A DNA stretch of 63,959 nt, counting the filler, from Bonamia ostreae (Eukaryota), in NCBI GenBank assembly GCA_040357525.1. It is 38 parts of 38 records of this genome, joined end to end, with 100 filler letters (N's around TTAATTAATTAA, not from the genome) between each part and the next. Parts side by side here need not be neighbours in the genome. Positions count along the whole stretch, not along the records: positions 1 to 1,603 come from JBDODL010001571.1; 37 more parts are not named here. The stretch is one strand, 5' to 3'. The notes under the pieces are model-generated. The model ran no database searches. It was not told where the DNA came from and saw nothing but the letters and a program-made list of their open reading frames with translations. Positions 1 through 50,146 of the stretch are shown here, piece after piece. A program made the position numbers and the translations under genes. Numbering within the stretch: the first letter of the stretch is position 1; every line of letters starts with the position of its first letter.

Positions 1-864
1 GAACGGTCTTTTTTGTTTCCCTGATATATTACTACATTTAGCGAAGTCCATTCTTGCAATTCTCTCTTCCAATTTCCTAGCGCTAATTTTTACAATATTT
101 GATCAATCCCCAAAATTTAATCGGGAAAATTAATTATTTGGCTGAAAATTTCCGAAGAGAAAACTCGAAAGAGGACAAACGACAAGAAAAGGGCCATTGC
201 CAAAACAAGTCGCGATGTAATCAATCAACGCGATCGCTTGGATGGTTTTGCCGAGGCCCATTTCGTCGGCCAAAATGCAGCCGGTTTTGTTGTGCCAATT
301 CCGGATGAGCCATTTTGCGCCGCTGATCTGCCAATCTCTCAGTCTGTTTTCGTGTCTGTATCTGTCAAATTTGCAATTTTAACGATTTATCGATTTTGCG
401 ATTTTCGTCAAACGAGCCCAAATCGGCATTTATCGCGTTTTCCAAAGTTGTCTTCCGCGATTGGTCGTTAATCTGTTTGAACCGGCGAAAAATTTCGGGA
501 TTCTGCGAATCGCGAAAAAAACATTGATGTCTTCTTCGTAGTCCCAAGTGCAAGAACTGAAAGGCTGTCCGACCCATTTGACAAAATATTCATATCTCTC
601 TTCGTTGAGGGAATGCCGACTGGGGCGTCCAGCCAAAATCCGTTCGGGCTCAATTTCTTCGCCGAAGAGCGGGTCCCCTTCAGACCAAAAATAATTGACC
701 TCTTCCTTGAACCGCGAAAACTTGTTTTTCGCATGGCTGCCCAAAGTCTTTAGGACATCTTCTTTTAACCACTCGGAATGGATTTTGGAGAGATCTTTGA
801 ATGTGCAAAAATATTCAAAAGTGCCGTTGAGTCGCCTTTGGTGCAAAATCTTATCGACGATCAA
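1..864 (-). CDS. CHD-family SNF2 chromatin remodeller (tandem chromodomains plus helicase N-terminus), partial, spliced
   Basis: Chromodomain YFVKWVGQPFSSCTWD; after removing introns 503-522, 362-383 and 83-164 it reads LRDWQISGAKWL..GCILADEMGLGKTIQ..GPFLVVCPLSTLGNWKREL. The start may lie upstream, near 1060. Confidence 0.9.
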
Positions 865-1126
865 CTTATTTTTATGTTTCCAGAAAAAAGGGGAAATGGA
901 TTAAAAAGATATTGGTCACTTTTGAGTGGCTTTTTCTGGAGTTTGGAGGGTAAACGGGGATCGCGATTGGTCCGCGCGGCAGCGATTTCTTTTTAGCGGT
1001 AAATTGGGTGCGTTTAGGTATTTGATTGTAAATCGAAAAATCGTTAAGTCTTCCATACATATTTTAAGCTTTAAAATTATAAAACGGGTTTAAAATATAT
1101 TGATTTGGATAAATTGAATTTACAAA

Positions 1127-1569
1127 TCAGGGCTCACTTCCTTTGCCTTCTTTGAGTCCGTATTGTCTTTTTAGCTCGTTAATGGCTTCTCTCTGTTTTT
1201 TGAGCGCTTCAGACTTCTCCAGTCGCTCTTTCTTAAAGTAAACCAGGACGAGATATCTTCCCTGAATGGAATATCCTTGCAGCGCCTCTAATGCGCTTTT
1301 GGCGTCAAACAAATCCTCGTAGACGACATAGGCCGTTCCTCTCGATTCGTTTGTGCTTCCCCTTTAAATTTAGGTGAGATTTCTAAGCCAAATTTTTCTT
1401 TTTGAGAATGGCGATGAAGCTCATTTATTGGATAGGTAAAAATGGGAAACATCCTAATTTGCCTAATGGCGCCATATTTTCCGAAAATCGAATAAAGTTC
1501 TTGTCCGGTAACTTTGAACGGAAGATTTTTAGCGTAAAGAATGCGATTTACTTCGGGCGGGATTTTCAT
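1127..1569 (-). CDS. SF3B6: U2 snRNP SF3b p14 subunit (RRM), one 89-nt intron 1362-1450
   Basis: [52 protein letters not shown] matches p14. Confidence 0.95.
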
Positions 1570-3688: not shown

Positions 3689-4700
3689 ATGATAATTCTG
3701 TTTGCGCCATTTTTCTTCTTTCCACATTTTTCAAAACAAAATTTTGACAATCCGTTCACCGCCGATTATTTTGACGAGAAAGTCGTCGTTAGACCACTTT
3801 CTGATGGCCGTGTTATTACTCATTTCGATTTTTTTATATCGAGCGATCTCAAAAACGGCCAAAGTTCCAAAAACATAAAATTTCCAAAGTCGGAAATTTC
3901 CTATTTCCGAAAAGCATTCGCCAAATAATTGAAAAAACGGATGTGCGCCACCTCGAGCTCTCCTTCGCACAAGGAAGTTGGGATGGCTATTTTGGGGAGG
4001 AGTTCGCGCCATCTCAGAACGGCCTCGAACTGGAAGCCGATTTCGAAGACGGAGAAGAAGTGGAGAAAAGATGGAAAGAGCTTCTAGACGCGTTCTCGGG
4101 AAATTTTTGCGGCTCTTTCAAAGATTCGCATATAAAAAAATTTCGGACTTTTACGCCAATAAACGAAAAGTTTAAAAGAGTTGAAATCGTTCCAAACGAA
4201 CCGTTTTGTGTAGAAAATTTGAGCGCTTTTTTGGATTTGTTGCCTTGTCGCGCTCACGTTAAAATTTAGCTTTGGCTAAATTATTATTTTTATTTTTTAA
4301 GGCGGGAATGGCTTCTCTGTTGAATCAAGTGAGTTCGTTCGATTCAGATTATATTTCCGCAAAACTGATCGCGGACAAAAATTGCAGCGAAAGCGGCTGC
4401 AATGTTTTTATAAAAATGGAAAATTTTAATAAAAGTTGAAAATGGAAATTTTGATAACGATCGCAAAATTTTTTAAAAAGAAAATCGGAAAATCAAATTT
4501 GTTCAAAATGAGCGATTTGTTCGATCGAAATTACAAAAATTGCGTTTTATCGAAAAACAGAAAAATTGTGTTCGAAGCGCTTTCTTCCGTCGATTTTTTC
4601 GAATTCTTTGAAGACGACAATGTTTTTTTCGATTTTTTTTTAATTTGGTTTATTTGCTAAATTAAAATAAGATTATTTTTGATGTGAAAGAGATCGATAA
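3689..4700 (+). CDS. PIGT: GPI transamidase subunit PIG-T/Gpi16, 5' part, spliced; 3' limit approximate
   Basis: Signal peptide; FDEKVVVRPLSDGRVITHFDF; LFPKSIRQIIE..LELSFAQGSW; EPFCVENL..LLPCRAH|AGMASLL; introns 3864-3889 and 4258-4301. Confidence 0.9.
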
Positions 4701-5194: not shown

Positions 5195-5998
5195 TTACTC
5201 TATATTAAATCGATTAATCCATTCCGTGTCTCTTTTTGTCTTGTAACTGACGCCGCAACTGTCCAAATAATCCAAAATCAACTTTTTATGAACATTTGCA
5301 CGTTTTTCCTTCATTTTCTTTACAAAATCGCTTATTTCGAACGTTTTAAATAATAAAATATCTTCAAACAACTGATCGTCTGATAAAATGTGCTTTTTCA
5401 GCATTTTAAAGTACTCGATTTTTTTAATTTCCGTTTTTTCCGTTTTATCGTTTTTGTTTTCTTATTGTAATAAGTGTTTTTGTTTTGGATTCAATGAATA
5501 CAAAATGTTAAAATATAAAAAACGTTTCAAGATTGATCTGTCAAAACTTGTCGAACAAAAATTCAATTTTTGTGGTTTGATGGGACTATTATGCGAAGGC
5601 ATTTCTCGTTTTTGAGCACTCGTGTTTAATAAATTTGGAGGTGGCAAACCCCATCGACTTGGTGTATATGATTTGTCAGGATGGTTGGCGTCCCATATTT
5701 TTATCAATAGATTGACCATCGCTTCTTTTGACGATATTTTCAAATTATTTTCCGCCATTTTTTCTTTGAGCTGCAACATAGAAAATGATCGAATTTCGGA
5801 AATTTGTTCGTTCCGGTAAATAGCAAAACTGACAGGCGAAAGTTCCGATTTCTTTTTGTTATTTTGGTTGCTCAAATTTTGCAGTTTGTTCAATTTTGTA
5901 ACAAAAATCGCCTTTTCTTTATTCAAATTTTCAATTTGAGAGTTCATTTTACGAATTTTTGCTTTTAAACAGTTGATTTCTGTTTTTTTATCCGCCAT
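5195..5998 (-). CDS. SLX4: SLX4-like structure-specific endonuclease scaffold (SAP plus SLX1-binding domain), one intron about 5461-5523
   Basis: SAP-like SMLQLKEKMAENNLKISSKEAMVNLLIKIW; C-terminal LFEDILLF..LILDYLDSCGVSY. Confidence 0.7.
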
Positions 5999-6055: not shown

Positions 6056-6703
6056 ATGGAATCAAGAAACGCCGAACAAATTGAAAAAGACATTTCTGAA
6101 TTGGAATCGATTTTGCTAAAATGTCGATCCGATCACAACAAGAGCAAAATTCAAGAGATAATCTGCGAATACAAAATAGAACTGACACGAATTCCAAAGA
6201 ACCTCAAATACACAAAATCTGAAACCAAAATGGTGAAAACAAATTGGGTCAAATTTGAATCAATAAGTTTTATAATTGACGACGCGGATAATTTTATAAA
6301 AATTTTTGTGAAGAACAAAAACGGCGATTTTGGAAACGTTAAAAAAGAAGATGTTTTTTGTGACTTTACGAAGCGATCTTTTGATTTAAAATTGACTAAT
6401 TTGAAGTTTTTACTTTACAATTTTTATCATCGCCAATAAATTTTGAAAATCGAAAAAAATTAGCGGAAAAAACTACAGATATCTCGGGAAAAACCTTTCA
6501 AGAGACATTTCTCCAGAAAAAAGCTCTTTCGAGTTAAAGAAAAACAAAATAATTCTAAAATTGAAAAAATCAGATGACAAACTCTGGATCAGACTTTTTG
6601 GCAAATCCCAAGACGACACTAAAGATCCATCATCTGGAATTACCGATATGATAAAGCAGATGTACAATGAGGGAGATGACAAAACGAAGGAAATGATCGG
6701 GAA
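6056..6703 (+). CDS. CACYBP: Calcyclin-binding protein / Siah-interacting protein, 3'-truncated
   Basis: N-terminal helical hairpin, CS domain FTKRSFDLKLTNLN|GKNYRY, SGS domain DPSSGITDMIKQMYNEGDD. Confidence 0.85.
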
Positions 6704-7025: not shown

Positions 7026-8400
7026 AACTTTGGCGGAAAATTGTAATAAGAATCGTTTTGATTTTGCTGAACGTTTCCATTTTCTTCAATAATTTCGTCG
7101 TTTTCTTTATCGTTCTCATTTTCACAAACTGTTTTTTCGTTTTCCTTTTCATCATTTTCGCTATACATTTTTTCAACCTTTTCTCCGATCTTCTCTTCGT
7201 CCAAATTTAGATTTTTGTCTAATTTCTTCATCTTTTCATCTTTTTTGTCATTTTCTATTTTTTCTTTTTTGTTTATATGTTCTTGTCCATTTTCAGCAAA
7301 ATTTCCCTTTTCGTTTTTGGCAAAATTGCCATTATCTTGAAAATCATCGTTCTCCTCCATTTTGCCGTTCGAACGTGTCGCGTTGTTTGAATTCTCGATA
7401 TAAAATTTTTTGAGATGATCTTTTACGACGTAAATAAAAATCAAGTCGTTTTTTAAAATTGAATTTATCGATTGGTTATCTTTTTTGAATCGATATCCTC
7501 TTTTCTCGTAAATTTCTGTGATCACCTTTTTTGAACACAATTTTTTGTTTTGATCGATTTTTTTAATTTTGACAGATTTTTGACCATTTTTTAATTTTCG
7601 ATATATTTTTTAATTTTTGATCGATTTTTGACCATTTTTTAATTTTCGATCGATTTTTGACCATTTTTTTAATTTTCGATCGATTTTTTAATTTTTGACC
7701 ATTTTTTTTATATTTTGACAGATTTTTGACCATTTTTTTAATTTTTGATCGATTTTTGACTATTTTTTTTATTTTCGATCGATTTTATAAATTTTTGACC
7801 ATTTTTTTATACAAAATTTTCAATCAAAAACGATATCATTTTCATCACAATTCAACATTTTGCACACTTTCATTCTAACGTCTCTGATCGTCCCAAACCT
7901 ATGCAACTCCAAAACCATTCTGATGCACCTCTTTGACTTGCTCCCAGGCACCAGCGTCACCGGCAGCATCCTCGTTTCGCTCGAAAACATCGGCAAACTC
8001 AGCGCCAAAAACGGGTCGAACATCTCCGACACGAAATCGCACGACGGACAGACCAACGTCGACTTGATTTGGCCCTGGAAATGGTCCACGATGATCGACC
8101 GATTTCGCTTCAAATGAGTGTCCCAAGCTTCTCTCGCGACAACTTTGTCGCAACGGCCATTTTGTTCGATGTTTTCGGTGAACGGTTTTTGCTTGACGAG
8201 GTTGAGATCTTCGTGGAGGCCGTCGAGTAGGAAGAAGAGCAGTTCGGAAGAGTCTTGTTGGTTGTAGCCGGAGAAGCGAGGGGCGAATTGTCCGATGCAA
8301 AGTTTGAGGTCGGAAGGAGAGACAACGCCGGTTTCGCCGGACCACATTTTGCGCATAAGAGCGCCGTAGTTTTCGGCGATTTTGCCCTTTTTTTTAAGAA
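7022..8400 (-). CDS. Ubiquitin-specific protease (USP4/11/15-like), internal fragment
   Basis: FAPRFSGYNQQDSSELLFFLLDGLHEDLN..RNRSIIVDHFQGQIKSTLVCPSC..FDPFLALSLP; the downstream exon 7022-7540 is tentative. Confidence 0.9.
7545..7815. repeat. Intronic minisatellite (GATCGATTTTTGACCATTTTTTAATTTT units)
   Basis: Repeated units between the two USP coding blocks. Confidence 0.8.
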
Positions 8401-11893: not shown

Positions 11894-12639
11894 AAGGGGA
11901 GAATTCCTGTTAACACGAGCGTTTTAGACACGTCTTGCAGAATCCCGGCGATCATTCTAATGCACGAATACTGGGGACCGGAGAACATTCTAAACCAGGC
12001 AACTGAATGGTTTTGCCCAAAGAAGTTTAAATTAGCAGATTTAAGTTACAACCTTTTGGTCCCCGATTTGTACCGCGGAAATCTGGTGGAAGACTTTAAA
12101 CGATCCCAAAATTACATTCTCACCACAAAACCGGACGTGATGGGCGCAATGGAAGATGTGAAATCTACCGTAAAATTCGCTAAAGATAAACTAAAAGCGA
12201 CTAAAGTCGGTATTGTTGGACTAAGCATGGGCGGCGTTTTAAAACATCATTTTTGCAAAAGGCTCTGGCGATGTGCGCTGGTTTGCACGTAGAGGGAATA
12301 GAGTGCGCAGTTTCATTTTACGGAATAATCCCGGATCGGTTGGCTCTGTTAAAAGATGTCAAAATTCCAATGCAATATCATTTTGGCGATAAAGACGCGT
12401 TGAGAGGGTTCACCACTCCAAAAGTTTAAATTTTACCATTTTCTGTTTTCCAAAAGGAGGTGAATTTGCTAAAAGAAAAATTGGAAAAGTGGAACAATTC
12501 GAATCACGAGATTTTCATGTACGAAAATGCAAGACATTCTTTTGCAAACGAGTCCACTTCGGAAAGTTACAACGACAAAGTAACACAAATTGCAAAATCC
12601 AACATGTTCCCTTTCCTGGAAAGACACCTCAAAACTTAA
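11894..12639 (+). CDS. Dienelactone hydrolase family protein, spliced (introns 12236-12261 and about 12424-12456)
   Basis: HEYWG, LVPDLYRG, GIVGLSMGG|ALA, VSFYG, HFGDKD, YENARHSFANE. Confidence 0.88.
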
Positions 12640-15283: not shown

Positions 15284-16402
15284 ACGTGCTGACGACCAAA
15301 ATCGCGCCTTTGTTGCAGAAAGTTAAAAATTTTATGTTGTGCGAGATGGAACAGAATTTCAGGTACAGTTTCCCGAGCCGCGACCTCATCTCGTCGATCT
15401 CGTTCACCTGCTCGTTCTCGATGTCGGCCGTCACCAGCATTATCGCGAACTTCATGTCGAACACGCTGACTAAACGTTGATGCAAAAACAGATCAGGAAT
15501 TCGGTCATCACGATGAACGTGAACGCGCTGAACATGCTCTCTGCGGTTACTGGTCAAAACGGTATGTGACGCCCACGAACACGTGCACCATTATGATGAA
15601 GGAGTCGTTCACGCCGAAGAACATGAACGTGTAGAAGCTTAGCTTCGAAGTGCGCGCGGTTGTGTTCGAATAGCCAATTTGTCGGAACAGAAGGTAGATC
15701 TGCGCAAAGTTGACGAGTATCGTCAGAACGATGTACTCGTTGGCCTGTCTGGAGAAGTCCTCGAAGCCCAGTATCGAGCCGCTGATGCTGAGCTGTTGGT
15801 TAGAGGTTGCAACGTTGGAAAAGTTCTCGGGGCACTTGTCGACTATGAAGCTGTTGCCCGTCACGACGACGTCGGTCCTCTTCGACAAAGAGCCGTTTTG
15901 CACTAGGTTCGGGAATTTTACCTCGGAAGAACAGTTCGAACCTGTAGTTGCAGAAGACGGCGGGGTAGTGAGTCGCCAGTCCAGAGCTCCCGAAGCCGTA
16001 AAAGTTTCTAAAATTACAGTCGGAAACAGCACTTCGAACCGGTTCGGCGGGCTGATGTTGTCCCAGACGAACTTCTTGTCCGTGAAAAGAAGCGCCTTGT
16101 CGCCGCTCAGCCAGCCGTAAGTGTCCAGACCGAGATTCTCGACGATCGACCCTCTCAGGATGACGGCGCGGCCCTGGCTTAGTTGCGGACAGAACCTTGA
16201 AGTAGCGCACTCCGGAAACTGCCTTCGAGTGGAAACTCAAAATTATCTTGCCCGTTTTCCCGGGGCGGTCCAAGTCTTCGAAGCGTCCGAAGTAATTCTT
16301 GTCGTGGTAATGGCCTTTGCTCGCCTTTACGTGAAAAACTCGAACCGCCGAGTTCACCGTTATTGCTAGCGCTATGAGCCAAATTGAAGCGATTCTTGCC
16401 AT
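15284..16402 (-). CDS. Tul1/FLY-type transmembrane RING E3 ligase, 5' part; introns 16174-16195, 15541-15560, 15470-15489
   Basis: Signal peptide; QIYLLFRQIGYSNTTARTSKLS..D; FLIF|SVFDMKF restored by splicing. Confidence 0.75.
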
Positions 16403-16978: not shown

Positions 16979-18532
16979 AAAAAACCTCTTTAAACGGTTT
17001 TTTGGTCCCTCCCGATTTCCCTGTTTTCAGAGAAGCCGTTGCTTTCGCCTTAAACATCTCTTCGAACTCATCTTTGTCCAGAACAACATTGTCGTCTTTT
17101 ATTCCATCCCAAACCGTCCCTTCGATCTTGTTCACCGGCAATATTCCCCAATGCAAATTCTTCATTTTTACGCTCGGAGATGGATTGCTTTTCTCGGGCA
17201 GATAAGCTTTCTGCGGCGCTGACGCACCTAACGGCGGTGGCGCTCCGATTCCTCCGAGTGGCGGCGGAGCTCCGATTCCCGCGATTGATGGCGCTACTGG
17301 GGCTCCTGTATCCAATGGCGGCGGTGGCAACGGCGTTTCTGCTCCGGCGAGAGGCGGTGGAAGCAGTTCCGCAGAGCTCTCTGCGGCAACCGGTAAAGCG
17401 GTTTCTCCGGTTTTTTCGGAGTCGGGTTTTGCGGTAAGAGCTGCGGACTTTTTGAGTTCGGCGATTTCGTTTTCTTTATCGATTTTGTATCGATTGAATT
17501 CTTTTCTTAGATTTTCGACTGCGTCGATTTCTTCGGGCGATTTAGACCTAGATTGGGCTACTTTCTTTTCCATTATTTTTTTTATTTCCGAATATTTGAG
17601 CAATCTCGCGTCTAATTTTTATTTAAAATTTAGCTTTTTAAATTTTATTTTTATAAAATTTTGTAATTTTTATAATTTTTCATTTAAATTTTGTTATTTT
17701 TCAATTTCAAATTTTATTAAATTTTGTTATTTTTCAGTTTTTAAATTTATCAAAATTTAATTTTTTATTCGTTTAATTTTTTTAGACGAAAAACCTTTTG
17801 TGAACGATTTTTGAATGATCGCATTAAAATCGACGTTTTCGTCAATTCTATCGATATTCTCTTCCATCTCGTCAATTTCTTTGTCGTTTATGATAAATGC
17901 TGTTGCCAGTTGGAGAGCGTTATGGCAATTTTGCCAAATAAAGTGTCTAAAATTATTAAAGTTTATTAAAAAGACCCCAATCTTCGAACGTTCGGAATAA
18001 TCAAAAAATATTTCATCAAATCGATCAAATATGCGCTGTGACCACTTTCTATTGAACTTTTCAACAAAAAATTCCAAACTGATTCGGGATCACTTTTTAT
18101 TAAAAATTTAGCTTTTTAGAAAACTTCATGTTAATATTTAGCAATTCTGATTCTTTTCTGTCATTTTCCATTTCCTTTTCAAAAATTTCGAATTGGTTTA
18201 ACAGCAAAGCCAAATCGTCTGCGTTCTTACAATTCGTTTGTTGGTCGTTTGTTGATTTCTTTTTGAAATTTTTTCAATTGGAATATTTTTTAAAATTAGT
18301 CATTTTTGAAAATAAAATTTAGTCAAACGGAAATAGCGTTGAGGATTCCGTCATCCAAAAGAAAACGTCTCTGATGGCATCTTTCTTCCAAATGATGAAT
18401 GGAGTTGACCATAACGTTGATTAAAGTGATTGCTGAAACCATTAACTGAATATCTTTCGCTTCAGAGATTTGTTTCACTAAAAGACTATAAGCAGTTTTT
18501 AGTTTTTGTTCTTTACTGCTTTTCTGAAGCAC
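16979..18532 (-). CDS. Formin fragment (FH3, coiled coil, proline-rich FH1, start of FH2), spliced
   Basis: SAITLINVMVNS..ERCHQR; PPPLGGIGAPPPL; PSVKMKNLHW..IEGTVW..EFEEMF. Confidence 0.92.
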
Positions 18533-18669: not shown

Positions 18670-18878
18670 AAAATTGATAACAAAAAATGGATTGAAAGTA
18701 CTCCAAAAATTGATAACAAAAAATGGATTGAAAGTACTCCAAAAATTGATAACAAAAAATGGATTGAAAGTACTCCAAAAATTGATAACAAAAAATGGAT
18801 TGAAAGTACTCCAAAAATTGATAACAAAAAATCGATTGAAAGTACTCCAAAAATTGGTAACAAAAAATCGATTGAGAG
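18670..18878. repeat. 36-bp tandem repeat, about six copies
   Basis: AAAATTGATAACAAAAAATGGATTGAAAGTACTCCA units. Confidence 0.95.
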
Positions 18879-19146
18879 TGCTTTGTCGGATAAAAGTAAA
18901 AAAGAATTGGAAGTAAAAAAGAAGATGAAAATGCCAAATTGGGCTTTGACGGTTGCGGGAGTGGCAAAAAAGAGAGATAAAGAATGGGAAGAAATAAAAG
19001 AATCGGTGAAAAAAGGAGAATTGAAAGGATTTGAAGAGAAGAAGTTTGACGAAAAAGTTTTGGAGAAAATGGATTTGGAAAATTTGGAAAATTTGGAAAA
19101 AGGTCTTGACAAAGAAAAGAAAAATTTGGAAAAACAATATAATTAA
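18670..19146 (+). CDS. Hypothetical protein C-terminus with in-frame 12-aa repeats (KIDNKKWIESTP)
   Basis: The repeat frame runs without a stop into SALSDKSKKELEVKK...KQYN*. Confidence 0.55.
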   Translation, partial: KIDNKKWIESTPKIDNKKWIESTPKIDNKKWIESTPKIDNKKWIESTPKIDNKKSIESTPKIGNKKSIESALSDKSKKELEVKKKMKMPNWALTVAGVAKKRDKEWEEIKESVKKGELKGFEEKKFDEKVLEKMDLENLENLEKGLDKEKKNLEKQYN

Positions 19147-20470: not shown

Positions 20471-21230
20471 CAGTTCCGGGCGGGCCATAGAGCAAAACGC
20501 CCTTCGGAGGGTCGATCCCGAGATTGACGAAACGGTCGCTGTGCAATAGCGGCAATTCGACCACTTCTCTCAGTTTCTTGATTTGCTCTTTGCAACCGCC
20601 CACGTCGTCGTAGGTCACATCCGGCTTCTCTTCCACCGTCATCATTGTCACCTGCGGGTCGATTTTCATGGGAAGAGGAATTTGGATCTGCAATTTGGTT
20701 CGGTCCACTCTGCTCTTTTATCCGAAAATTACCCGACGCGCATTCCTTCTTCGATATCCGTCGGCGAAACGCGGTTCCCCAGTTCGACCACATATTTTCC
20801 GATGTGCGTCATGCTGACGACGTACTTCGCTTTGGGCGACTGCGAGTCGATGATTTTGGTGCAGCGCGCGACTTGCAACGGCTGCTCTTTCTGAAGCAGA
20901 TTTCTGTCGGATGTCAAGTCCCAGAGGTTTGGTTGGGACAGTCCGGTGTCGGATTCTTTGACTCCTTTTGTTTCGCTGATGTTTTGGGACAGTTCTTTGA
21001 GCTCTTTCTTTAATTTGGGAAATTGCAAATTTGTAAATTTTTTGTGTTTTGTTAAATTTTTGGTTTAGCACTTCCAGTTTTTTGATGCTTTCGGAGTACA
21101 TTCCTCTGTTGTAAAGTCGAAGAAGTTCGATGTCCCTTTCGTTTAAAAGGTTTTGAATTCCGTCTTCATCTTTTTCCGATTTTGTTTTTTCGTTTTCAGG
21201 TTTTTTGTTGTCTGTTTTGTTGTCAACCAT
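20471..21230 (-). CDS. PSMC2: 26S proteasome AAA-ATPase Rpt1, 5' part; introns about 21009-21071 and 20710-20732
   Basis: [64 protein letters not shown]. Confidence 0.97.
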
Positions 21231-22404: not shown

Positions 22405-22476
22405 GCGTTGGTGATCTAGTGGTTATGATTTCAAGTTCCCATCTTGGCCACCCGGGTTCGAATCCCGGCCTTCGCA
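22405..22476 (+). tRNA. tRNA-Gly(CCC) with two U-U mismatches in the acceptor stem
   Basis: GCGTTGG..TCAAG TTCCCAT CTTGG..CCGGG TTCGAAT CCCGG CCTTCGCA, followed by a TTTTT Pol III terminator. Confidence 0.88.
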
Positions 22477-26466: not shown

Positions 26467-27008
26467 TTAGCCGTAACATTTAATGCAAGTATCTTCACCT
26501 TTCTTCGCGGATTGTCCTTTCTTTTCCAGATATTTCTGATGATAATCTTCTGCCAACCAAAATTTATTCATTTTTTTTACTTCTGTAACAACTGGTTTCC
26601 TATAGCTTTTGCTGATTTTCTCGATAATGCCTTTAATTTCTGTTTTCTGCTCTTTATTCCTGTAAAATGCGATGCTTCGATATTGACTTCCGATATCGTT
26701 TTTTTGGCGGTTTAGAGTAGTTGGATCATGTAACTCGAAAAACAACTCGCAAAGCTCTGCAAAGCTAACTACTTCCGAATCAAAAACTACCTTTTGGTTA
26801 GTTATTGAACGTTGACGCATTCCGAATGACCGCTATTCCCCGAACAAACCTCTTCGTAGGTCGGATTCGTCGTTTCTCCACCGGAATCTGGATATTTTAA
26901 GTAAACATCCTACTTCAGTACTCAAAACTCCAGGAATTCGTTGAAACTGAAGTTCTAGTCCCCAAAAGCACTTTAATAATAAATTAAATAACTCCTCCAG
27001 CGAAAGTA
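26467..27008 (-). CDS. msrA: Peptide methionine sulfoxide reductase A; introns 26971-26992, 26888-26906, 26791-26810
   Basis: Spliced: TFAGG|CFWGLE..TEVGY|SGG..NPTYEEVCSGNSGHSECVN|VVFD..HDPTTLNRQ..QYRS..AEDYHQKY. Confidence 0.97.
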
Positions 27009-32163: not shown

Positions 32164-33745
32164 CAATAATATAATAAATGTATATGAAAAAGCATATGAT
32201 ACTTTTAAATCTAAAAGTAATATGATCATAGTTTTTTTTGACTTGGAAAAAGCTTATGATACTGTGGATCGTAAATTGTTATATAAAATACTTAAAAACA
32301 TAGGAATTAATAACCAATTATTAATATATTTCAAAAATTTTCTCAATTCCAGATACGCAATTGTTAATTATAATAATTCTTTCTCAGATAAAAAGTGTTT
32401 TAATTATGGACTACCGCAAGGTAGTCCTTTGTCGCCAATTCTATTTAATATATATATTAACAGCGTAATAAATAAAATTGAAAATGTCAATGTAAGGGCT
32501 TTTGCTGATGATATATATGTATATTCTAAGAATAAAAACATTGATGTCTTACACTCTGATATGACTAAAGCTATAAAAATATTAGTAAACAGAACCAATA
32601 CCTTAAATTTAAAATTTTCAAATTTAAAAACAAAGGCAATGTTATTCACAAATAAAAATAAATCTGTTAAAAAATTAAAATTGTATGATAAATCTATTGA
32701 ATACGTAGATAATATGAAATATTTGGGTATACAATTTGACAATAGACTTAAATTCGATACTCATTTAAATTTCATACTAAAAAAAGCAAGAAAACGTTTA
32801 TATATTTTAAAATATTTAGCAAATGGAATTCATGGTTCAAAAAAAAGTATTTTAATAAACTGTTATAAATCATTTGTTAGATCTGTGATTGATTATTCAT
32901 TTCCAATTTTTTTATCATTAACAAAATCACGCCTTAAGAAACTTGAAAGTTTTCAGCATACAGCATTATGCTACTTATTGTCAATAAATAAAAGATCTAG
33001 TTATTTATGTTTACTACATTCAATTAATTTACTATCTATTGAAAAAAGAAATATTAAATTACTGTATAAATATGAAATAATGTATAAATTAGAGAAACCA
33101 AAATATAAACAGTCTGAAACATTTTATAGTAAAATTTCGCCCTTAACAACGATGGCAAATAAAATAAATCTATTCAAAAACAAACTCAATAAAATACAAA
33201 ACAATAAAACAAAAAATGAATTAATTAAAATTCAATTTGAAGAGTTGAAAAATAAATATATACAATGCAATGAAAACATTAAATTTTCAATAAATATATT
33301 TAATTATTTTGAAAATAAAAATACTAAAATCTATAACAAAATTAAATGTCTCGGCAACAGGGCATTTACAAATATATTAAAAATATATTGTGGATGTTTA
33401 GAATTAAACTATTTTCTATTTAAAATGAAAATTAGTAAAATAGATACATGTGATACATGTAAAACTAAGGAAACAGTAAAACATTGCCTATTTTACTGTA
33501 GGAAGCATAAAAATATTCGAAAAAATATTTTAAATTCAATTAAAGTAAAAAATATAAACTCACAAAAAAAGTTGTTATTTGACACAAAAAACCTTATACT
33601 TCTGAGCAAATTTGCAGAGTGCGCAATAATAAGGAAATAAAATAATCTAAAATTAAAAAAAATAAATATATATAAAAAAAAATATATATAATAAAAAAAA
33701 TTTTTTTTTACAACGAAAAAAAAAAATTATATATAAAAATAATTT
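32164..33745 (+). mobile_element. Non-LTR retrotransposon (LINE) ORF2 3' half: RT plus C-terminal CCHC finger and A-rich tail
   Basis: FFDLEKAYDTV, GLPQGSPLSPILF, AFADD, KYLGIQFD, CDTCKTKETVKHCLFYC; ORF uninterrupted to the stop at 33640. Confidence 0.95.
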
Positions 33746-33935: not shown

Positions 33936-34397
33936 TCAAACATTGAAAGCGCATTCGTCAAATCGCTTTTCAATGACGGTGTAAATATCGTACATGGCCA
34001 AAACGATGATTCCTGGCCCACCTCGGCTATTCCCGATCATCGTGTGGGTCTTGCCCGATCCAGTCGCCCCATAAGCGAAAATGGTCGCATTATAGCCATT
34101 CAAAGCGTCGATTACAGCCGATTTGGCCATTTTGTCGTAGACCGTTTTAGTCGAATCTTCGGGCGAGAAAACACAGTCGAAGGCGTAGTGCTGGTTTTTC
34201 TTGCGTCGCTTTCCGATCGATCCTAAAGGACGGGAAGTGTCTCCAATGTCGAAATTGACTATTTGTTTGTGTGCTATGTCGACGGTCGATTTTGTCTCTT
34301 TGGAACCGCTTAAAAATGGCTTCACTCTGATTTTGTTGAAAGTAAGCAATTATTGTAAGAACCTCACAGCAACTGAAATGGAATATTTATTAGACAT
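33936..34397 (-). CDS. Kinesin-8 (KIF18/19-like) motor N-terminus; intron about 34327-34362
   Basis: ISVAVR|VKP, YAFDCVF, GYNATIFAYGATGSGKTHTM. Confidence 0.9.
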
Positions 34398-35689: not shown

Positions 35690-36984
35690 TGAACCTTCTT
35701 TTCCAGTGATTTCTTTGACGGTAATGTTGCACCATTTTTGCATATTTTTGGGCAATTTTATTTTTTTGTCTTTTTTGACATTATTTTTGTTTTTAGATAT
35801 TTCGTTATTCGGAAAATTTTCTTGTTGCAACGACGCGTAAAATGTTGAATATCCCATTGGATCATTAATATTTTGTTGATAATTTTCCATATTCTGCATT
35901 GTTTGAAAATTTTGTTGATAATTTTGTTGATTTTGCGCATTCTGCAGTGTTCTCAGATTTTGTTGATTTTCCGTGTAAATTTTAGCGATTTCAGAATTGA
36001 TATAAAAATTTGGCGACAATAAATAATTTTGATCGTTGTGATAACCTTCCGCAGTGTTTTTAGAATCCAAATTGTTTTTGTTTTCCAAATTTAACTTTTC
36101 ATAATTTTCGTTCAAATTTTCCGTTTTTTGATCCAAATTTTCGTTTTCAACTTTATTCGTTTCTTCTTTATTGGCGAATTCTTGTCTTCCATCGATGTTT
36201 TCTTCGAAAACTGTTCTTTTTTCATCCGTTTCGGACTTTTCGTTTTTGTCGATCGAATTTATTGAAATGTCGGAAATCTCTTCCGTTTCGATCGAAATTT
36301 CGGGCGATTTTTGTGTTTTGGCCAAATTTTCAAATTTGTTAAAATTTTCCGTTTCGACGGATTTTTCCTTCGGATTTTTGAATTTTCGATATTTTTTAAA
36401 GTTTTTGTCGTGTTCGTTCAAATCTTTCAACGTTATCTGTTGCCCCAAAAAAGCTAAATTTTAATTTTCTAAAACTCGACCATTTGTTTTCGACCATTTT
36501 TCTTAGTTCGACAAAATACATTTTGCTGTAATTTTTGACTTTAACGGAGGAATCGAAAACGAGTTGTTTGTACAAGAGCTTCATTGCTTCGCTGCTGTGC
36601 GGCCCTTCTTCTTTCCCGTCGCTGTCGACGTACCACCATTTTCGAATTTGATAATGCTTGAGTCGCCCGGAACGCCTTTCATATCGACTTTGACCTCGGA
36701 AATGTTTTTTGATGCGAAAAGGAATTACGAAAAGCTCTTTTTCAAACTTTTTCGTTCGCAATTTTTTTAATTTTTTGTTGAAAATGGCAAAAGTTTACCG
36801 GTTTGTTTAGATTTTCAAAGTACAAATGAATTGGTTCGTTGATGTGGTCGGTCAAGATTTCGCATTCGGAAGTGATTTTAAAATCGTTTTCTGACGTTCG
36901 GCTTTTAAAAAGCTGCAGCAATTCTTTTGAAGAGTAAAAATGGCGTTTGATTTGTTCTTGGTTTGTGTTTTCGCTGTCGTCCAT
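35690..36984 (-). CDS. GYF-domain protein (GIGYF-like), spliced, partial
   Basis: N-terminal FYSSKELLQL (4EHP-binding-like motif); WWYVDSDGKEEGPHSSEAMKLLYKQLVF. Confidence 0.75.
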
Positions 36985-37726: not shown

Positions 37727-38119
37727 TATAGACAAGTAACGTATATTTTTATTGCAGTCTGATAATTTTATTTTATCATTTTTTATTAAATCCCACGCCA
37801 AAATAAAATTAAAAATATTCATCAATATTTTTTATTTGGAATTTGGGCTCACGGCATTCAAGGTCCCGGATGACCGTCTTGCCCGAGGTACTGTAACTCT
37901 AGAAAGTTTCTTAACGGACAGATGTACAGACCATCGAAAATTCAAATCGCTAAATTCATTAAAATTCAGATCCCAAAACTTTTCTGGTAAAAATTCTAGC
38001 TTTATTTGGCCCATTTGTGTAATAATGTTAATCTCTGTTCAATCTTTTAGCAGTTTCTTCTGTTATCTCATTTTCCCAAATCATTAAATCATCAATAAAC
38101 AATATTTTTCTTAAATCTT

Positions 38120-38793
38120 TGAGCGTCCCTCAGGCCACAACGGGTCGCTCGCCGTTACTGAGGGAATCCTTGTTAGTATCTTCTCCTCCGCTTAGTTATA
38201 TGCTTAAATTCAGCGGGTCACCTTACTTCACTTGAGACTTTTGTCGATCTGCGAGACTACTTGGCTGGGCGCCGCACGGACACGTTCGTACTTTCATAAA
38301 TGGATTCAAAAAAATATATGCGTTCTTCATTGTTGCGAGAGCCTAGTCATCCATTGCAAAGACGGTTGTCGGGAGTTTTGCAGCGCTGTCACTGTCGCTG
38401 CATTTGTGTTGCCAAGCTGTAACCAGAGTATGTACAAAACGTTGGTTCGCGGTTGAATTTATTTGTGCAATAAAATGTGGTAATGATCCTTCCACAGGTT
38501 CACTAACGGAAACATTGTTACGATTTTTCCTTCCTCTAAACAACAAGGTTCACGAAGCTTCTAAGAACGCGGAGCGCTCTTATCCACCTAATTCACCTCA
38601 TTATTCAATCGGTTGAAGCGACGGGCGGTGGGTACACTGGGCAGGGACGTAAGCAATGCAAGTTGTGGTCGTGCGGTTACTAGATATTCCTTGGTCACGA
38701 GGAACACTTGCCCTCCTCTATCCCCACTTGGGTGCGCGGTGAAGATTACCCGGCCTTGTCAAGCCGGGTCAAACTCGTTGAACGCACCATTGT
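38120..38793 (-). pseudogene. rDNA pseudogene: 18S 3' end (38481-38793), ITS1, truncated 5.8S (about 38319-38369), ITS2 remnant, 28S 5' fragment (about 38120-38238)
   Basis: GAACCTGTGGAAGGATCATTA, GGATGACTAGGCTC..ATGAAGAACGCA and ACCCGCTGAATTTAAGCATAT are present, but universally conserved sites are mutated and segments are missing. Confidence 0.88.
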
Positions 38794-41700
38794 NNNNNNN
38801 NNNNNNNNNNNNNNNNNNNNNNNNNNNNNNNNNNNNNTTAATTAATTAANNNNNNNNNNNNNNNNNNNNNNNNNNNNNNNNNNNNNNNNNNNNAGATTAG
38901 TCACTGTTCGTTATATTCACCATTCATGGCCACATTTTACGAACAAAGAGAGAACAAACTGAGACGCAGCAACAGGATCTCTGTGAAATAATTTGAATGG
39001 AACAGGTTACATATTTCTTTTTTCTATGTAGGCATGTTGTTCGATGATGGTCGTCGTGATTACCATTGGGTATGAGAGTAAGACGGATTTTATTTGATAA
39101 AAATTAAGAAATGATAAGGAACAAAACTTTTCGTAATCGATAGGTGGCGTGATCCAAGCTACATGTAATAAATCCGTCATAGGTAAGTAGAGAAAAACCG
39201 TGTGTCGTCACTGTAGGCTAATAAATATACCTTGAATCGTGACTGCGTTTTGAAAGGTTTTAAAAGAATCTCTCTATATCAAATAATGCAGCACAATGGT
39301 TAAAAATAAATACCACGTTTTCACTTTTCAGTTCCACTTCAGTATATGGGAATTGGATAAAAAAGAATTCAAAGCATTTCTTCGCAGGACATCTTGATAT
39401 CCCGATGTCTTTGCTTATCCCTTGAGGTGTTCCGCAACACTGATTGCAAATGACGTGTCCACATCTTCTAATCCGCTTCTTCCATTTACTCTATTGAGTG
39501 TGATATTGAATCATTATGCGATTATCAATTCATTTTCTGCTTTTGCATTGCCACACTAGTAGTACTTATTTTGAATACGCATGTACACATATCAGTCATT
39601 TCAATGCACCTCTTTAGGACACTGTTATAGAAGCAAAGTCTATAATTCAAATTACATTCAGAGAAACTATATTCAAACTTTTAGCGCATTTATGTAATTG
39701 ATTTGATAATGAATATGGAAAAAAAATGTGTCTGTCGTTTCTTTTCAAGAAAAAATAATTCTCATTTTTACCCTAATGATTATTCGTAATATTCATGTAT
39801 AGAAGTTAAGGAAGCCCAAAATCATACCTTCTCACATGGAATATTGTGGTCGCCACTGCATGCGGGATAACCATTCTTAGATTTTTTTATGTCAAAGAGG
39901 AACAACATTTCCTAAAGAAAAATAAGAGATCCATGAACCTTCATGGTCACCTGAGTATTTTAAATCTTCATTTAGGTTAAGTAGTAAGGAAGACAGGGTC
40001 CATGCGATAATTAATGAAAAGTATTGCTTGGAAATGATTTTAGTTCTATCATGCATTCAGCTGCAATGTGAAAAGATGAAGACAACAAGCAGAGATCAAA
40101 CTCATGACCCCTGTATAGAATAGAAAAGTAAGAGAAAGGCAAATACCAGAGGTTGGNNNNNNNNNNCTGTGAGCCCTATACATTGATCAGGAACACGGAG
40201 TAGTATGTAGTCAAAACCATTGTGGAAAGAACAGCCTTAGAATTTGTACGAAACATGCCAAACAATATGTACTACAATGGCAAGTTTTAATTGTAAATTA
40301 AATCGTAATAACGGCCACAAACTTTGCAAAATACAGACTTTAAACGAAACTGTTGATACCCGTGTAATAAAAACTTATTTGTCAGTAGATTGCCTTGATT
40401 TAAAAGCTCCCCATACGTAGAACTTGCGCTTGCGTATCGAATCTGCTAAGATACGTACAAACCATATACAGGTNNNNNNNNNNNNNNNNNNNNNNNNNNN
40501 NNNNNNNNNNNNNNNNNTTAATTAATTAANNNNNNNNNNNNNNNNNNNNNNNNNNNNNNNNNNNNNNNNNNNNAAATCAGTGTGCCAAGAACGGTTTGAA
40601 AGTTATAGATCATGTTTTTAATTGTAGTACCGAAGAATTGTCAAAGTCTATAATCTTTAATATTTCAAAGTATACTTGAACATGTACACGTTGCTACATG
40701 TAAATTCTACATTTCCTGAAAACAATGCCAACATTTCTCTCACGATTTTAGTGTTAACGATCAGAGAGGAAACTTCGATGTCATTCTCAAACATTTAATA
40801 ACAGCAAGAAGTAGTGTTTGTGCATGCTTGTGTTCGATTTGTCAAAATGAAATAAATGAAAAAATACTGGGGGTTTTTTCTCGAAAGCCTCATATCAAGT
40901 TATGTCACTTTCTGTCGTTAAGTTAAAATTATAGAATTATAGTTCAACCCGTTTCATTTATTATCTGGCAAATTTTCATCTCAAATATAGCTACCTTGCA
41001 AATGTACAATTAGGATAATTAAAGATTGCAATCTTCAACTGAAATTGAGGATATAGGACATGTTTTGTTGCATGTAACTCTTAATTATTCAGTTTCCAAT
41101 TCTTAAGTATCATCGAGGAAAAGTGTACCTTATATTTTGACGGCCAGGCTTCGTTATATCTCTCTTCAGTTGATGCCATAATTTCTCTGGTTTAGAAAGC
41201 CTTTGATCTGTATCTGTGAGATTACCTATCTTGCCAACTCCGTCATATTAAGATTTCACCGCTTGTTTGATTTTCAATCCTGTAACAGAACAGGATGCTA
41301 TTGTTTGGTTTTTTTTTCAGGAGTACATATGAATTATTTCTACGATGTAATTGTATATTGTTTAACGTCCCGATCTAGTTTTTTATTTTATATGGATATG
41401 TCATCATTGCCGGTGAAGGGTTGAAAATTTTCGTTATCTTCACTTTCAACTATTGGTGTCAAAGAGAGTGTGAACTTGCTTTTCATACCAACATCTACCC
41501 TCTAAAATAAACTATGTTTCGACAAGCATTAATTAGTTTATGTTGATATTGAATTAAATTGTCTTCGTCATTTCGCACATAAACATGGCATTTCTGATAG
41601 TCATTTTCATGTATGAACACATCAATCAAGCTGCCTTTTTGTTTTAGTTTAAACAAGTTTTTTAAGAGACGTAAAGTTGGATTTAAACATTAATAATCAG

Positions 41701-45612: not shown

Positions 45613-46774
45613 ATTTTGATAAATTCATCATTATAATTTGCCATTTTGCCCGAAAACTTTGAATTGCCATTTAAACTAATTTGACTCAATGAATTGTATT
45701 CTTTGGCCAAAATTTTTTTGATTTTTTCAAAATGCTGCGTATTCGTCAATTTTTTCCTTTGGCTAAGATTTGTAAAATATTAGCTTAAAATGTTTCCTAT
45801 TGAAAGAGCAAATTTTGTAATTTTGCAATTTTGCAAAAAAAAACGTAAATCGGTTTGGAAAATGGCTGTTTTTGAGAGTTTCTACGAGTAATTGATCGCT
45901 GTTTATAACATTTGAAAATTCTTTGCAGTCGAAGCTTTTTCGTTTTAGCAAATTTGCGTCGGTATCTATTTCCAGTTCACAAAAAGTAGTTTTTTTGAGG
46001 CCGTTTTTTCTTTCAACAGCTTTTATGTTTCCTTCGTCCCATTTTTTAGTAGAAGGACTAAATTTGATTGCAAAAATTTTTTCAAAAATTTATTCGAAAA
46101 CTTTTTAGATTTTGGAAGCGGACAACGAAAAGAAAAGTTATTCAAACTGATATTCGAAAACCCTGAAAGTCCGAAATCAATTAAAAATTTTAGCTCAAAA
46201 TCTATATGGCTTTCGAACAAAGTCCAATTTTCTTGAATGTTATTGTTTTCGTAAAGATGTTCTATCTTCTTGGTTATTTTTGTGTTCACAAATTCGATCT
46301 ATTTTATAATTTGCAAAACTTTTAAAAAGTCGCTTTTTTTATTGAATCCGTAAATTGATTTTGCTCTAAATATCGTCAATTTGTTTATAAAATTTTTACC
46401 TTTTTATTAAAATTTTTATTAAAATTTTGCAAATTTAATATTTCTAAACAGATATTTAGCTCTTTATCAGCAGAAAAAGAGGTTTTTAGAGCTTTGTTTA
46501 AATTTCTGGCAAAATCGTTTGCAGTTTCATCGTTAATCATTTCCCCGTTATTTTGAAAAACGACATAAGGAAAATAATTGTGTACATTTATACAAGCCTT
46601 TTAAAAACGATATTTAGTCTTCAAAACATTCTGAAGACTTTCTGTCGCCCCAAAAAGTTGGATCAATGGCGTTTTAAAAAGTTTTGTGTTTTTATACTTT
46701 GTTTGTTCACAATCAAACAATCTGTTCAGAGGCGCCATTACGCTTTGGACTGAAAATATTTTCATCGAAAACAT
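45613..46774 (-). CDS. REV3: DNA polymerase zeta catalytic subunit, N-terminus, spliced
   Basis: MFSMKIFSVQSVMAP..PLIQLFGATESLQN|ACINVHNYFPY; LFESHIDFELKFLIDFGLSG. Confidence 0.85.
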
Positions 46775-48970: not shown

Positions 48971-50146
48971 TAGTTTCCAAAACTCTGGGATTGTCCAGTT
49001 TACCCCAGCACAAATTCGGAAACCCCCTTTTAACAGGATTTTCTCCCTCTCTAAAATAATCCTTTTGGCTATTCGCAGTGTCGAAGATAAAGTAGCCAAG
49101 AATATTTAACAAGAAAATCACAAAAAGGTACAACTTGCTTTGCCCTTCAATCCCGGCACTGTAGATATACAAAGTCTGTAGCGGGAACACAAAAGGCACC
49201 ATGACGATATCTAACATCAATAGCATCCAGCCAAACTTTTCCTCGATAATATCAAACGAGTTAATGACGCACTGCTCTCCCTTGAAGCAAGCATTAACAA
49301 AGCAGAGATGGAAAAAACAGATCAAAACGATTTCGGTTGTAACAGTTCCCCGTTCCTCAAGCATTTTTAAGGCTATTCCAATGTCGGTAAACCACCACAT
49401 CATTATCCCCGGGCGCAGTTCGAAAAAGAACTTTATGTCAAAGCCGGAACTCGCTCCGGGGTTCAAAGCCTTCCCCTTTTAAAGAAATAATTTTATAAAT
49501 CAAAATATTTGATAATAGCGACAACAATTAAGACGATAATAACCATGAAGAGATTTTGAACAAAATTGGAATTGTCGTTATTGTTAAAATTCACATTAAC
49601 AAGGATTATCACGATAAAAGAAACAAAGTTAGCTGTTGTAAGATATTGCCCAAATCTATCGCAAAGTTCTGTAAGTTTGAAAATCTAAGCAATATTGAAA
49701 ATGACTTTTGTAAAAAATCGGGATAACTAAGAAACTTGCAAATAATGAAAAATAACGGCGAAGATATTTGTAACAACAAAAGCTCTTTGTCCATTGAAGC
49801 AATATTTAATTTGTTTTCCGTCTTTAAGAGGCTTTCCTAATTGTTCTTCGCCCGGCAATGATTTGAACAAAATGGCTTGGAACAAAATCCAAGTCAAATA
49901 AGTTTGAACGGTCCTTAGAGAAGGCAAAGTTCCAATAATAATTTTTGTCAAGTTACTTAACCAAAATAAAATTGATTTTACTGAAAGTGGGTTCGGTAGC
50001 AATAGTTGGCCTTTGTAAATTTGCAAATGCAAAAATTTACCTTTGTTGAAAGCAACGCATATCCAACTCCAATAAATAAAGAAGGGGATAACAAAAAAAG
50101 CGAAGCACATTAAAGTGGTGTTGCTCTTTTTTATAAATATCGACAT
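48971..50146 (-). CDS. ERG4/ERG24-family sterol reductase, closest in motif to ERG4; spliced and 3'-truncated
   Basis: LFM|GKALNP, FDIKFFFELRPG, NACFKGEQCV..DIIEEKFGWML, FDTANSQK. Confidence 0.9.

Follow-up and report, generated by a model that had tools for sequence, protein, structure and literature searches.

The introns of Bonamia ostreae, a haplosporidian (Ascetosporea, Rhizaria) that parasitizes oysters, begin with a 5′ splice site whose consensus is G-T-T-(T)-(T) and not GTRAGT. This observation was made in a window of 63,959 bases that consists of 38 unplaced contigs, sorted by size from 1603 down to 1573 bases and joined by linkers of 44 N, TTAATTAATTAA and another 44 N (for example 1604-1703). 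The window is therefore not one locus, and genes that adjoin on separate contigs are not genomic neighbours. Among 27 curated introns the base at +3 is T in 23 (85%), G in two, A in one and C in one. T also prevails at +4 (19/27, or 70%, with A and C at four each) and at +5 (16/27, or 59%, with A 6, C 4 and G 1), while +6 has no preference (T 9, A 9, C 5, G 4); position -1 is A in 10 cases, C in 7, T in 6 and G in 4, and 18 of the 27 introns start with GTTT. A canonical U2-type intron has the form GTRAGT ... YAG, and few features of spliceosomal introns are as constant as its purine at +3. The canonical donor bases are found here in 3 (purine at +3), 1 (G at +5) and 4 (G at -1) of the 27 introns.

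Two introns, both with GTTT donors, are seen to be removed in RNA contigs. They lie on contig 1, whose minus strand carries the 3′ part of a CHD helicase gene, which runs off the contig, and a complete SF3B6 gene (1104..1569, -; ATG at 1569, stop codon 1129..1127, poly(A) after 1104). Contigs from four public sequencing runs (X1 and X2, DNA; X3 and X7, RNA) were aligned to contig 1 only. The RNA label of X3 is a guess, and spliced and unspliced forms coexist in this run; an RNA-seq run labelled 'mollusc metagenome' contains part of the window. In the X7 RNA contig (383 bases) position 1360 is joined to 1450 with 89 bases skipped, reading CT..AC on the plus strand. This corresponds to the 89-nt SF3B6 intron at 1450..1362 (-; GTTTCC...AAAG), of which position 1450 is the donor G. 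Homology requires an intron at this place, after ...IRQIR, with the piece upstream matching Pfam RRM_1 positions 1-32 and the piece downstream positions 34-69. The same RNA contig has a run of 19 T before 1104, which on the minus strand represents a poly(A) tail. The poly(A) site of the SF3B6 mRNA lies 23 nt past the stop codon (1104-1129, -), leaving a very short 3′ untranslated region.

The second RNA-supported intron is the fourth of the CHD gene (164..83, -; 82 nt, GTTTTC...TTAG), with position 83 as its final base. The X3 contig joins 82 to 165 and skips 82 bases, an intron is required by homology between ...VVCPLS and LGNWKREL, and Pfam SNF2 positions 61|62|63 are continuous over the junction. 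In the DNA runs X1 and X2 the contigs remain collinear with contig 1 and show no gap, with two to three changed letters and no indel. The public CHD model P0001 (130-378, -) ends in ...SSFLFGNFQPNN, a read-through into this RNA-spliced intron. Positions 271..1080 lie outside the X3 and X7 RNA cover, and CHD introns 1 to 3 (55, 20 and 22 nt) are thus not RNA-supported. Introns 2 (503..522, -; 20 nt, GTTTTT...GCAG) and 3 (362..383, -; 22 nt, GTTAAA...ACAG) are needed for the frame, and P0001 has the same splices. Intron 1 (865..919, -; 55 nt, GTGACC) is given as annotated in P0001 only, where it is an exception to the GTT rule; an alternative donor at 955 reads GTTTAC.

Outside contig 1, introns were derived from reading frames and homology. 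For each exon pair all frame-restoring GT...AG combinations were listed, and the choice among them was then made by criteria blind to the base at +3. These were continuous Pfam profile positions over the junction (MsrA, DLH, PIG-T, SNF2, REV3), continuous positions on a PDB chain (Rpt1 on 8amz_H, CacyBP on 1x5m_A) or a match to the public protein models P0001, P0002 and P0004, with a unique donor or the shortest intron as fallback. GT..AG ends in 27 of 27 curated introns are a search condition of this procedure and not an independent result, and the choice of acceptor leaned to the first in-frame AG. The public B. ostreae proteins P0001, P0002 and P0003 correspond to contigs 1, 3 and 10 (87-98% identity over the aligned part, the queries being unspliced open reading frames (ORFs)), and P0004 to contig 11 (100% match). 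A dicyemid source, which the tiny introns and the 'mollusc metagenome' run had suggested, was rejected, since the matching public proteins are assigned to B. ostreae and the donors of Dicyema are reported as 'GTa' (PMC13644364); the label of that run also fits an oyster parasite. Because the public models come from funannotate trained on transcriptome reads, as stated in the available text of the Ascetosporea paper (PMC11069148), they are not independent of the donor signal.

Several junctions were left out of the counts. The ZC3H15 junction (donors 54656 GTC; 54659, 54677 and 54689 GTT), the ERG24 B-C junction with seven candidate donors (49522 and 49534 GTC; 49594 GTG; 49525, 49543, 49561 and 49600 GTT) and GYF a (36798 GTA versus 36747 GTT) are ambiguous, and the exon downstream of the USP donor at 7848 (GTG) is doubtful. 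The acceptor lies beyond the contig for the third Rpt1 donor (GTG or GTT), for kinesin-8 (33941, GTTTGA) and for the kinesin on contig 37. Three P0003 introns (16345..16325, 16027..16008 and 15813..15793, all GTT) fall outside the Pfam-supported frame and were considered unreliable. A 28th intron, in MsrA (26992..26971, GTTATT), was added after counting and stands outside all counts. A dynamic-programming gene finder without a donor model merged SF3B6 with CHD and produced false introns, and was dropped. Automatic linking of all ORF pairs gave 785 pairs with 593 distinct donors, mostly noise, and was used solely as a procedure-matched null. Reading TAA and TAG as a residue, as in a ciliate-type code, lengthened the ORFs, as is expected in any AT-rich DNA; this code was rejected, the genes reading well in the standard code and SF3B6 ending in TGA.

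T at +3 exceeds each of the backgrounds against which it was set. T makes up 36% of the interior of these introns (+7 to -7) and follows GT in 2335 of 5553 cases (42%) when all GTN of the window are taken on both strands, GTT being the commonest GTN. The same shortest-link rule applied over all ORF pairs, which are mostly spurious, yields 267/593 (45%), and unused GTs in exons within 90 nt either side of the curated introns yield 74/152 (49%). The binomial probability of at least 23 T in 27 is 1.9e-7, 2.0e-5 and 9.3e-5 against frequencies of 0.36, 0.45 and 0.487, respectively. T is found at +3 in 18 of the 22 introns with support from RNA, homology or public annotation, and in 10 of the 12 for which the support is RNA or collinear, tool-based homology; these 12 best-supported introns alone give P values of 0.002 to 0.015. 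The full tetranucleotide GTTT occurs in 17/26 used donors and in 23/149 exonic decoys (26-intron set, Fisher P 4e-7).

These comparisons bear on the possibility that the donor has simply decayed to GT, with no dedicated reader of +3 and a T excess that reflects local composition or mutation bias in a T-rich genome. The commonness of GTT in the window and among unused exonic GTs would agree with such decay, as would the smooth fall of conservation from +3 to +6 and the reduced splice motifs of other tiny-intron parasites, with 'GTa' in myxozoans and Dicyema (PMC13644364, in its available part). However, T at +3 reaches 85%, against 36% inside the introns and 45-49% among decoy donors and unused exonic GTs, and the enrichment of GTTT over the decoys is not accounted for. 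The intron interiors are moreover A-rich (~41% A) and not T-rich, so that on composition alone A should be no rarer than T. We consider this explanation rather improbable.

A preliminary description of this DNA had proposed that the donors read GTT(T/A/C) rather than GTR, with only a few GTA or GTG sites such as those in Rpt1, and with a pyrimidine at +3 but no G at +5. All of this is borne out by the counts above, and the two Rpt1 exceptions, GTGCTA and GTAATT, are both homology-collinear. From such donors it predicted a rewired U1 5′ end and/or U6 box, or recognition independent of U1; the reasoning is sound, has a published precedent in Entamoeba and is partly supported. The donors that it listed were re-derived with the exception of two, the kinesin-8 site at 33941, which reads GTTTGA and has no acceptor in the contig, and the ambiguous one in ZC3H15. 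It had also named the T content of the introns as the level against which T at +3 should be judged. Since T at +3 exceeds this level, the GTT observation stands, and it is confirmed as real.

Could the shortest 'introns' be frameshifts of the assembly, or errors of the gene models, in 1.6-kb contigs of low quality, with GTT arising from the way in which donors were picked? Introns of 33 nt or less lie outside the RNA contig cover. In addition, P0003 is wrong in its 3′ half and yet its four introns are all GTT, which means that a GTT-trained predictor can invent GTT introns. On the other hand, two longer introns are RNA-proven with GTTT, and the short ones combine GT...AG ends with exact Pfam or PDB collinearity (for example MsrA 28|29|30 and 54|55, DLH 108|109 and Rpt1 134|135). 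Contigs from two DNA runs differ from contig 1 by no indel and by just two to three letters, and the same picking rule yields only 45% T on decoys. An artefact of this kind thus appears very unlikely.

Apart from the donor consensus, these are ordinary-looking GT...AG spliceosomal introns. Like canonical U2-type introns they have GT and AG termini and are removed from polyadenylated mRNA, two of them exactly in RNA contigs of which one carries a poly(A) tail. U12-type introns have a long /RTATCCTT donor and a TCCTTAAC branch site; this type of donor was found in none of the 27. Intron length is 19-33 nt in 16 of 27 cases, the remainder being 44-89 nt plus one of 183 nt. The acceptors are AAG (13), TAG (8) and CAG (6), subject to the bias towards the first in-frame AG. 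In contrast to the YAG acceptor of canonical introns, A is thus present at acceptor position -3 in 13/27 introns, and there is no pyrimidine tract. An A occurs at -9 in 15 of 26 introns and at -8 in 17 of 26. CTAAC, GTAAC, CTAAG or TTAAT is found about 6-10 nt upstream of AG in several introns, and TTTTAATAAAAG or TTTTAATAAAAAG forms the end of three. Should the branch point lie 7-8 nt from the 3′ splice site, it would resemble that described for Entamoeba invadens.

How might such a donor be read? The canonical U1 5′ end, ACUUACCU, would be limited to pairing with G+1, U+2 and sometimes A-2. With so little pairing to be expected from canonical U1 at sites of this kind, either U1 has changed or U1 is not the reader. 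The explanation that we favour, with some reserve and at somewhat less than even confidence, is that the 5′ end of the U1 small nuclear RNA (snRNA) has changed to A opposite +3 and +4, and perhaps +5, as in Entamoeba. Pairing to an A-rich strand would be expected to give what is seen, a stretch of U at +2 to +5 that is less conserved the farther it extends. G at +5 would be favoured by C48 of U6, and its presence in only 1/27 donors speaks for an A-rich partner and makes it less likely that pairing with U6 C48 drives the U run. A rewired U1 is ranked first because the fading U run and the near-absent +5 G fit an A-rich strand better than U6 alone. After hand-over from U1, U+2 to U+4 could pair with an unchanged U6 ACAGA box (U-A, U.G, U-A). 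With 49% of unused exonic GTs being GTT, the donor alone is too poor in information to define introns. Definition across a very short intron and a TAAY-like branch signal some 7-8 nt before AG probably supply the rest.

A second possibility, which we think somewhat less likely, is that selection of the donor falls mostly to the U6/U5 stage with little or no contribution from U1, which would have been lost or would no longer pair. U+2, U+3 and U+4 would then pair with the ACAGA of an unchanged U6, a protein would hold the U run, or both, inside a complex that defines the tiny intron by reaching across it. The counts at -1, +3 and +5 indeed leave next to nothing of canonical U1 pairing, and introns of 19-23 nt would leave scant room for adjacent U1 and U2 particles. 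The mikrocytids, which have 16-17 nt introns and 17-19 spliceosomal proteins, were found to have only U2, U4 and U6 (PMC10245619, available part), and the GUUUGU of Entamoeba increases pairing to U6 ACAGA (bioRxiv 10.1101/2022.06.08.495308, available part). Nevertheless, U at +5 (16/27) is left unexplained by U6 C48, and Rfam models missing a divergent U1 in relatives are weak evidence of its absence. The available text of the Ascetosporea paper has splicing genes disappear on the branch that unites paramyxids and mikrocytids and names no such loss for Bonamia (PMC11069148), and other tiny-intron lineages are reported with working spliceosomes (PMC13644364, in part).

Several observations weigh against a GTT donor read by a rewired U1. 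The sample comprises small contigs that total 64 kb, and RNA proof exists for 2/27 introns, both GTTT, the RNA contigs covering no intron of 33 nt or less; with this basis of 64 kb and two RNA-proven introns the exact percentages may move. Four of the 27 donors are GTG, GTA or GTC (CHD 919, Rpt1 21071, Rpt1 20732 and formin 17975), so that the reader of the donor tolerates mismatches. Rfam scans of the window, at the gathering cut-off and at E<=1, found no snRNA, only a tRNA and degenerate ribosomal DNA (rDNA). In the available part of the work on Entamoeba, Thecamonas, Mamiellales and 69 Saccharomycotina have atypical donors with U1 unchanged (bioRxiv 10.1101/2022.06.08.495308). The mikrocytids in which only U2, U4 and U6 snRNAs were found favour recognition without U1 (PMC10245619, in its available part).

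The closest known counterpart of the B. ostreae donor is that of Entamoeba, where, according to the available text, GUUUGU is present in 88-90% of introns and the U1 5′ end is ACAAAC in place of ACUUAC while U6 ACAGA is unchanged; Mastigamoeba has a separate matched pair, a GUGCGC donor and U1 ACGUAC (bioRxiv 10.1101/2022.06.08.495308). B. ostreae shares with Entamoeba U at +3 (23/27) and +4 (19/27), the loss of canonical U1 pairing, an AT-rich genome, a parasitic life and a putative branch signal near the 3′ splice site. The 'undescribed system' of the preliminary description is therefore too strong a term for the kind, since Entamoeba has +3U/+4U donors, but it may hold for this lineage. The two also differ. 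Whereas the near-invariant hexamer of Entamoeba retains G at +5 and U at +6, B. ostreae has G at +5 in 1/27 and an unconstrained +6. It is less strict, with GTTT in 18/27 and another base at +3 in 4/27, its introns go down to 19 nt and its acceptors are frequently AAG. Entamoeba belongs to the Amoebozoa and B. ostreae to the Rhizaria.

Other lineages resemble B. ostreae in part. In Mikrocytos mackini and Paramikrocytos canceri, also Ascetosporea, all introns are 16-17 nt long with a conserved sequence and the spliceosome is reduced (PMC10245619, in its available part). B. ostreae likewise has ultrashort introns, close to the smallest known, but over a range of 19-183 nt instead of a fixed length. 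In myxobolid myxozoans and Dicyema japonicum introns are <30 nt and the 5′ signal is reduced to 'GTa' (PMC13644364, as far as available). Introns <30 nt, weak 5′ and 3′ motifs, the lack of a pyrimidine tract and A residues before AG are common to these animals and B. ostreae, but they keep A at +3, which B. ostreae has in 1/27. Thecamonas, Mamiellales and Saccharomycotina illustrate that a shifted donor consensus need not bring a changed U1. Unlike in B. ostreae, their shift is reported, in the part of the source available, to lie at +4 (C or U) with the +3 purine kept. The available text of the Ascetosporea paper credits B. ostreae with 'canonical introns', a mean of two per mRNA, and gives no donor logo or sizes (PMC11069148). 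In our literature searches GTT donors were not found described, either for Bonamia or for other Rhizaria. Taken together, the B. ostreae donor is best regarded as a transformed 5′ splice site of a more degenerate form, which is probably recognized by a U1 whose 5′ end is A-rich or else by a route in which U1 has little or no part.

The remaining introns of the set are given here gene by gene. On the plus strand, PIG-T has three that agree with P0002: intron 1 (3864..3889, 26 nt, GTTCCA), intron 2 (4258..4301, 44 nt, GTTAAA), over which Pfam Gpi16 positions 188|189 are collinear, and intron 3 (4404..4435, 32 nt, GTTTTT). For intron 1 an alternative at 3889 (GTCGGA) fits the FPK motif worse. The CacyBP intron (6406..6463, +; 58 nt, GTTTTT) has the sole donor among the short candidates and is collinear with PDB 1x5m_A at 65|66|67. 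In the dienelactone hydrolase gene, intron 1 (12236..12261, +; 26 nt, GTTTTA) is collinear at Pfam DLH positions 108|109, and intron 2 (12424..12456, +; 33 nt, GTTTAA) uses the sole GT that keeps a conserved DLH segment, with Pfam positions up to 156 upstream and from 157 downstream. The SLX4 intron (5461..5523, -; 63 nt, GTTTTT) follows from ORF logic only, with Pfam Slx4 in the downstream exon; an alternative donor at 5547 also reads GTT (GTTTTG).

The Tul1-like gene on the minus strand has intron 1 at 16174..16195 (22 nt, GTTCTG), given by P0003 and ORF structure, and two introns from ORF logic only, intron 2 at 15541..15560 (20 nt, GTTTTG) and intron 3 at 15470..15489 (20 nt, GTTTTT), for which the alternative 15475..15450 is also GTT (GTTTAG). 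The 'hypothetical protein' P0003 (15285-16429, -, contig 10) has its 3′ half in the wrong frame, leaving the frame supported by Pfam DUF2921; the supported frame encodes a Tul1/DUF2921-type membrane E3 ligase. In the formin gene, also on the minus strand, P0004 and ORF logic agree on intron 1 (18259..18328, 70 nt, GTTTGA), intron 2 (18093..18124, 32 nt, GTTTTC) and intron 3 (17947..17975, 29 nt, GTCTTT, an exception), and P0004 gives intron 4 (17612..17794, 183 nt, GTTTTT). Both Rpt1 introns are exceptions: intron a (21008..21071, -; 64 nt, GTGCTA) uses the sole GT in range and joins positions 42|43 of PDB 8amz_H, the left side having been placed by eye, and intron b (20710..20732, -; 23 nt, GTAATT) is collinear at 134|135 of the same chain. 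A PDB search with the first Rpt1 piece gave no match.

In MsrA (minus strand), intron 1 (26888..26906, 19 nt, GTTTAC) and intron 2 (26791..26810, 20 nt, GTTCAA) are collinear at Pfam PMSR positions 28|29|30 and 54|55, respectively. The intron outside the counts (intron 0, 26971..26992, 22 nt, GTTATT) joins TFAGG to CFWG, in keeping with the GGCFWG motif. The remaining four introns, all on the minus strand, are that of the GYF protein (36454..36475, 22 nt, GTTTTA; ORF logic only), REV3 introns a (46400..46449, 50 nt, GTTTAG; unique donor, Pfam POL3_N 44|45 collinear within one residue) and b (46299..46319, 21 nt with an uncertain acceptor, GTTTTG; unique donor and ORF logic), and ERG24 intron A-B (49685..49735, 51 nt, GTTTCT), for which 4/4 candidate donors are GTT and Pfam ERG4_ERG24 reaches 129 at the last.

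Other features of the window were recorded alongside the introns. A degenerate rDNA piece at 38115-38801 (-) contains a small-subunit rRNA 3′ end (97 bits) and a weak 5.8S match (29.7 bits, cut-off 42). By eye it has a 5′ end like that of the large subunit and very short spacers, and it looks like a decayed or very divergent copy. The tRNA gene lies at 22405-22476 (+) on contig 14 (Rfam, 46.6 bits). Contig 20, the most AT-rich of the contigs (GC 20%), carries a retroelement with a 491-residue open frame and a reverse transcriptase domain (RVT_1, E 7e-27; 32165-33637, +). On contig 12, which has overlapping open frames on both strands, a tandem 12-residue unit (KIDNKKWIESTP) lies in an open frame at 18670-18900 (+).

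The unusual donor has a practical consequence, in that gene finders and read mappers with a default minimum intron size and GTR-weighted donors will mis-model B. ostreae genes; two of the four public models examined, P0001 and P0003, are partly wrong. Entamoeba is the only lineage with U at +3 reported in the sources cited and, in the available part of its description, provides the most direct evidence for co-evolution of introns and snRNAs (bioRxiv 10.1101/2022.06.08.495308). If U at +3 and +4 has arisen in a second lineage, one unrelated to Entamoeba, it could be tested directly whether the change in U1 is a rule or an accident. With its looser consensus, the lack of preference for G at +5 and introns near the size limit, B. 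ostreae would also show how a donor of low information is found. We tentatively suggest that haplosporidians may have independently rebuilt the recognition of the 5′ splice site, with GUUU(U) read by a U1 with a run of A or without U1 pairing, in a genome that has kept some two introns per gene and in which introns can be as short as 19 nt. If this is true, it would represent a second independent origin of +3U donors and an intermediate toward the condition of the related mikrocytids, with their introns of 16-17 nt and a spliceosome in which no U1 was detected.

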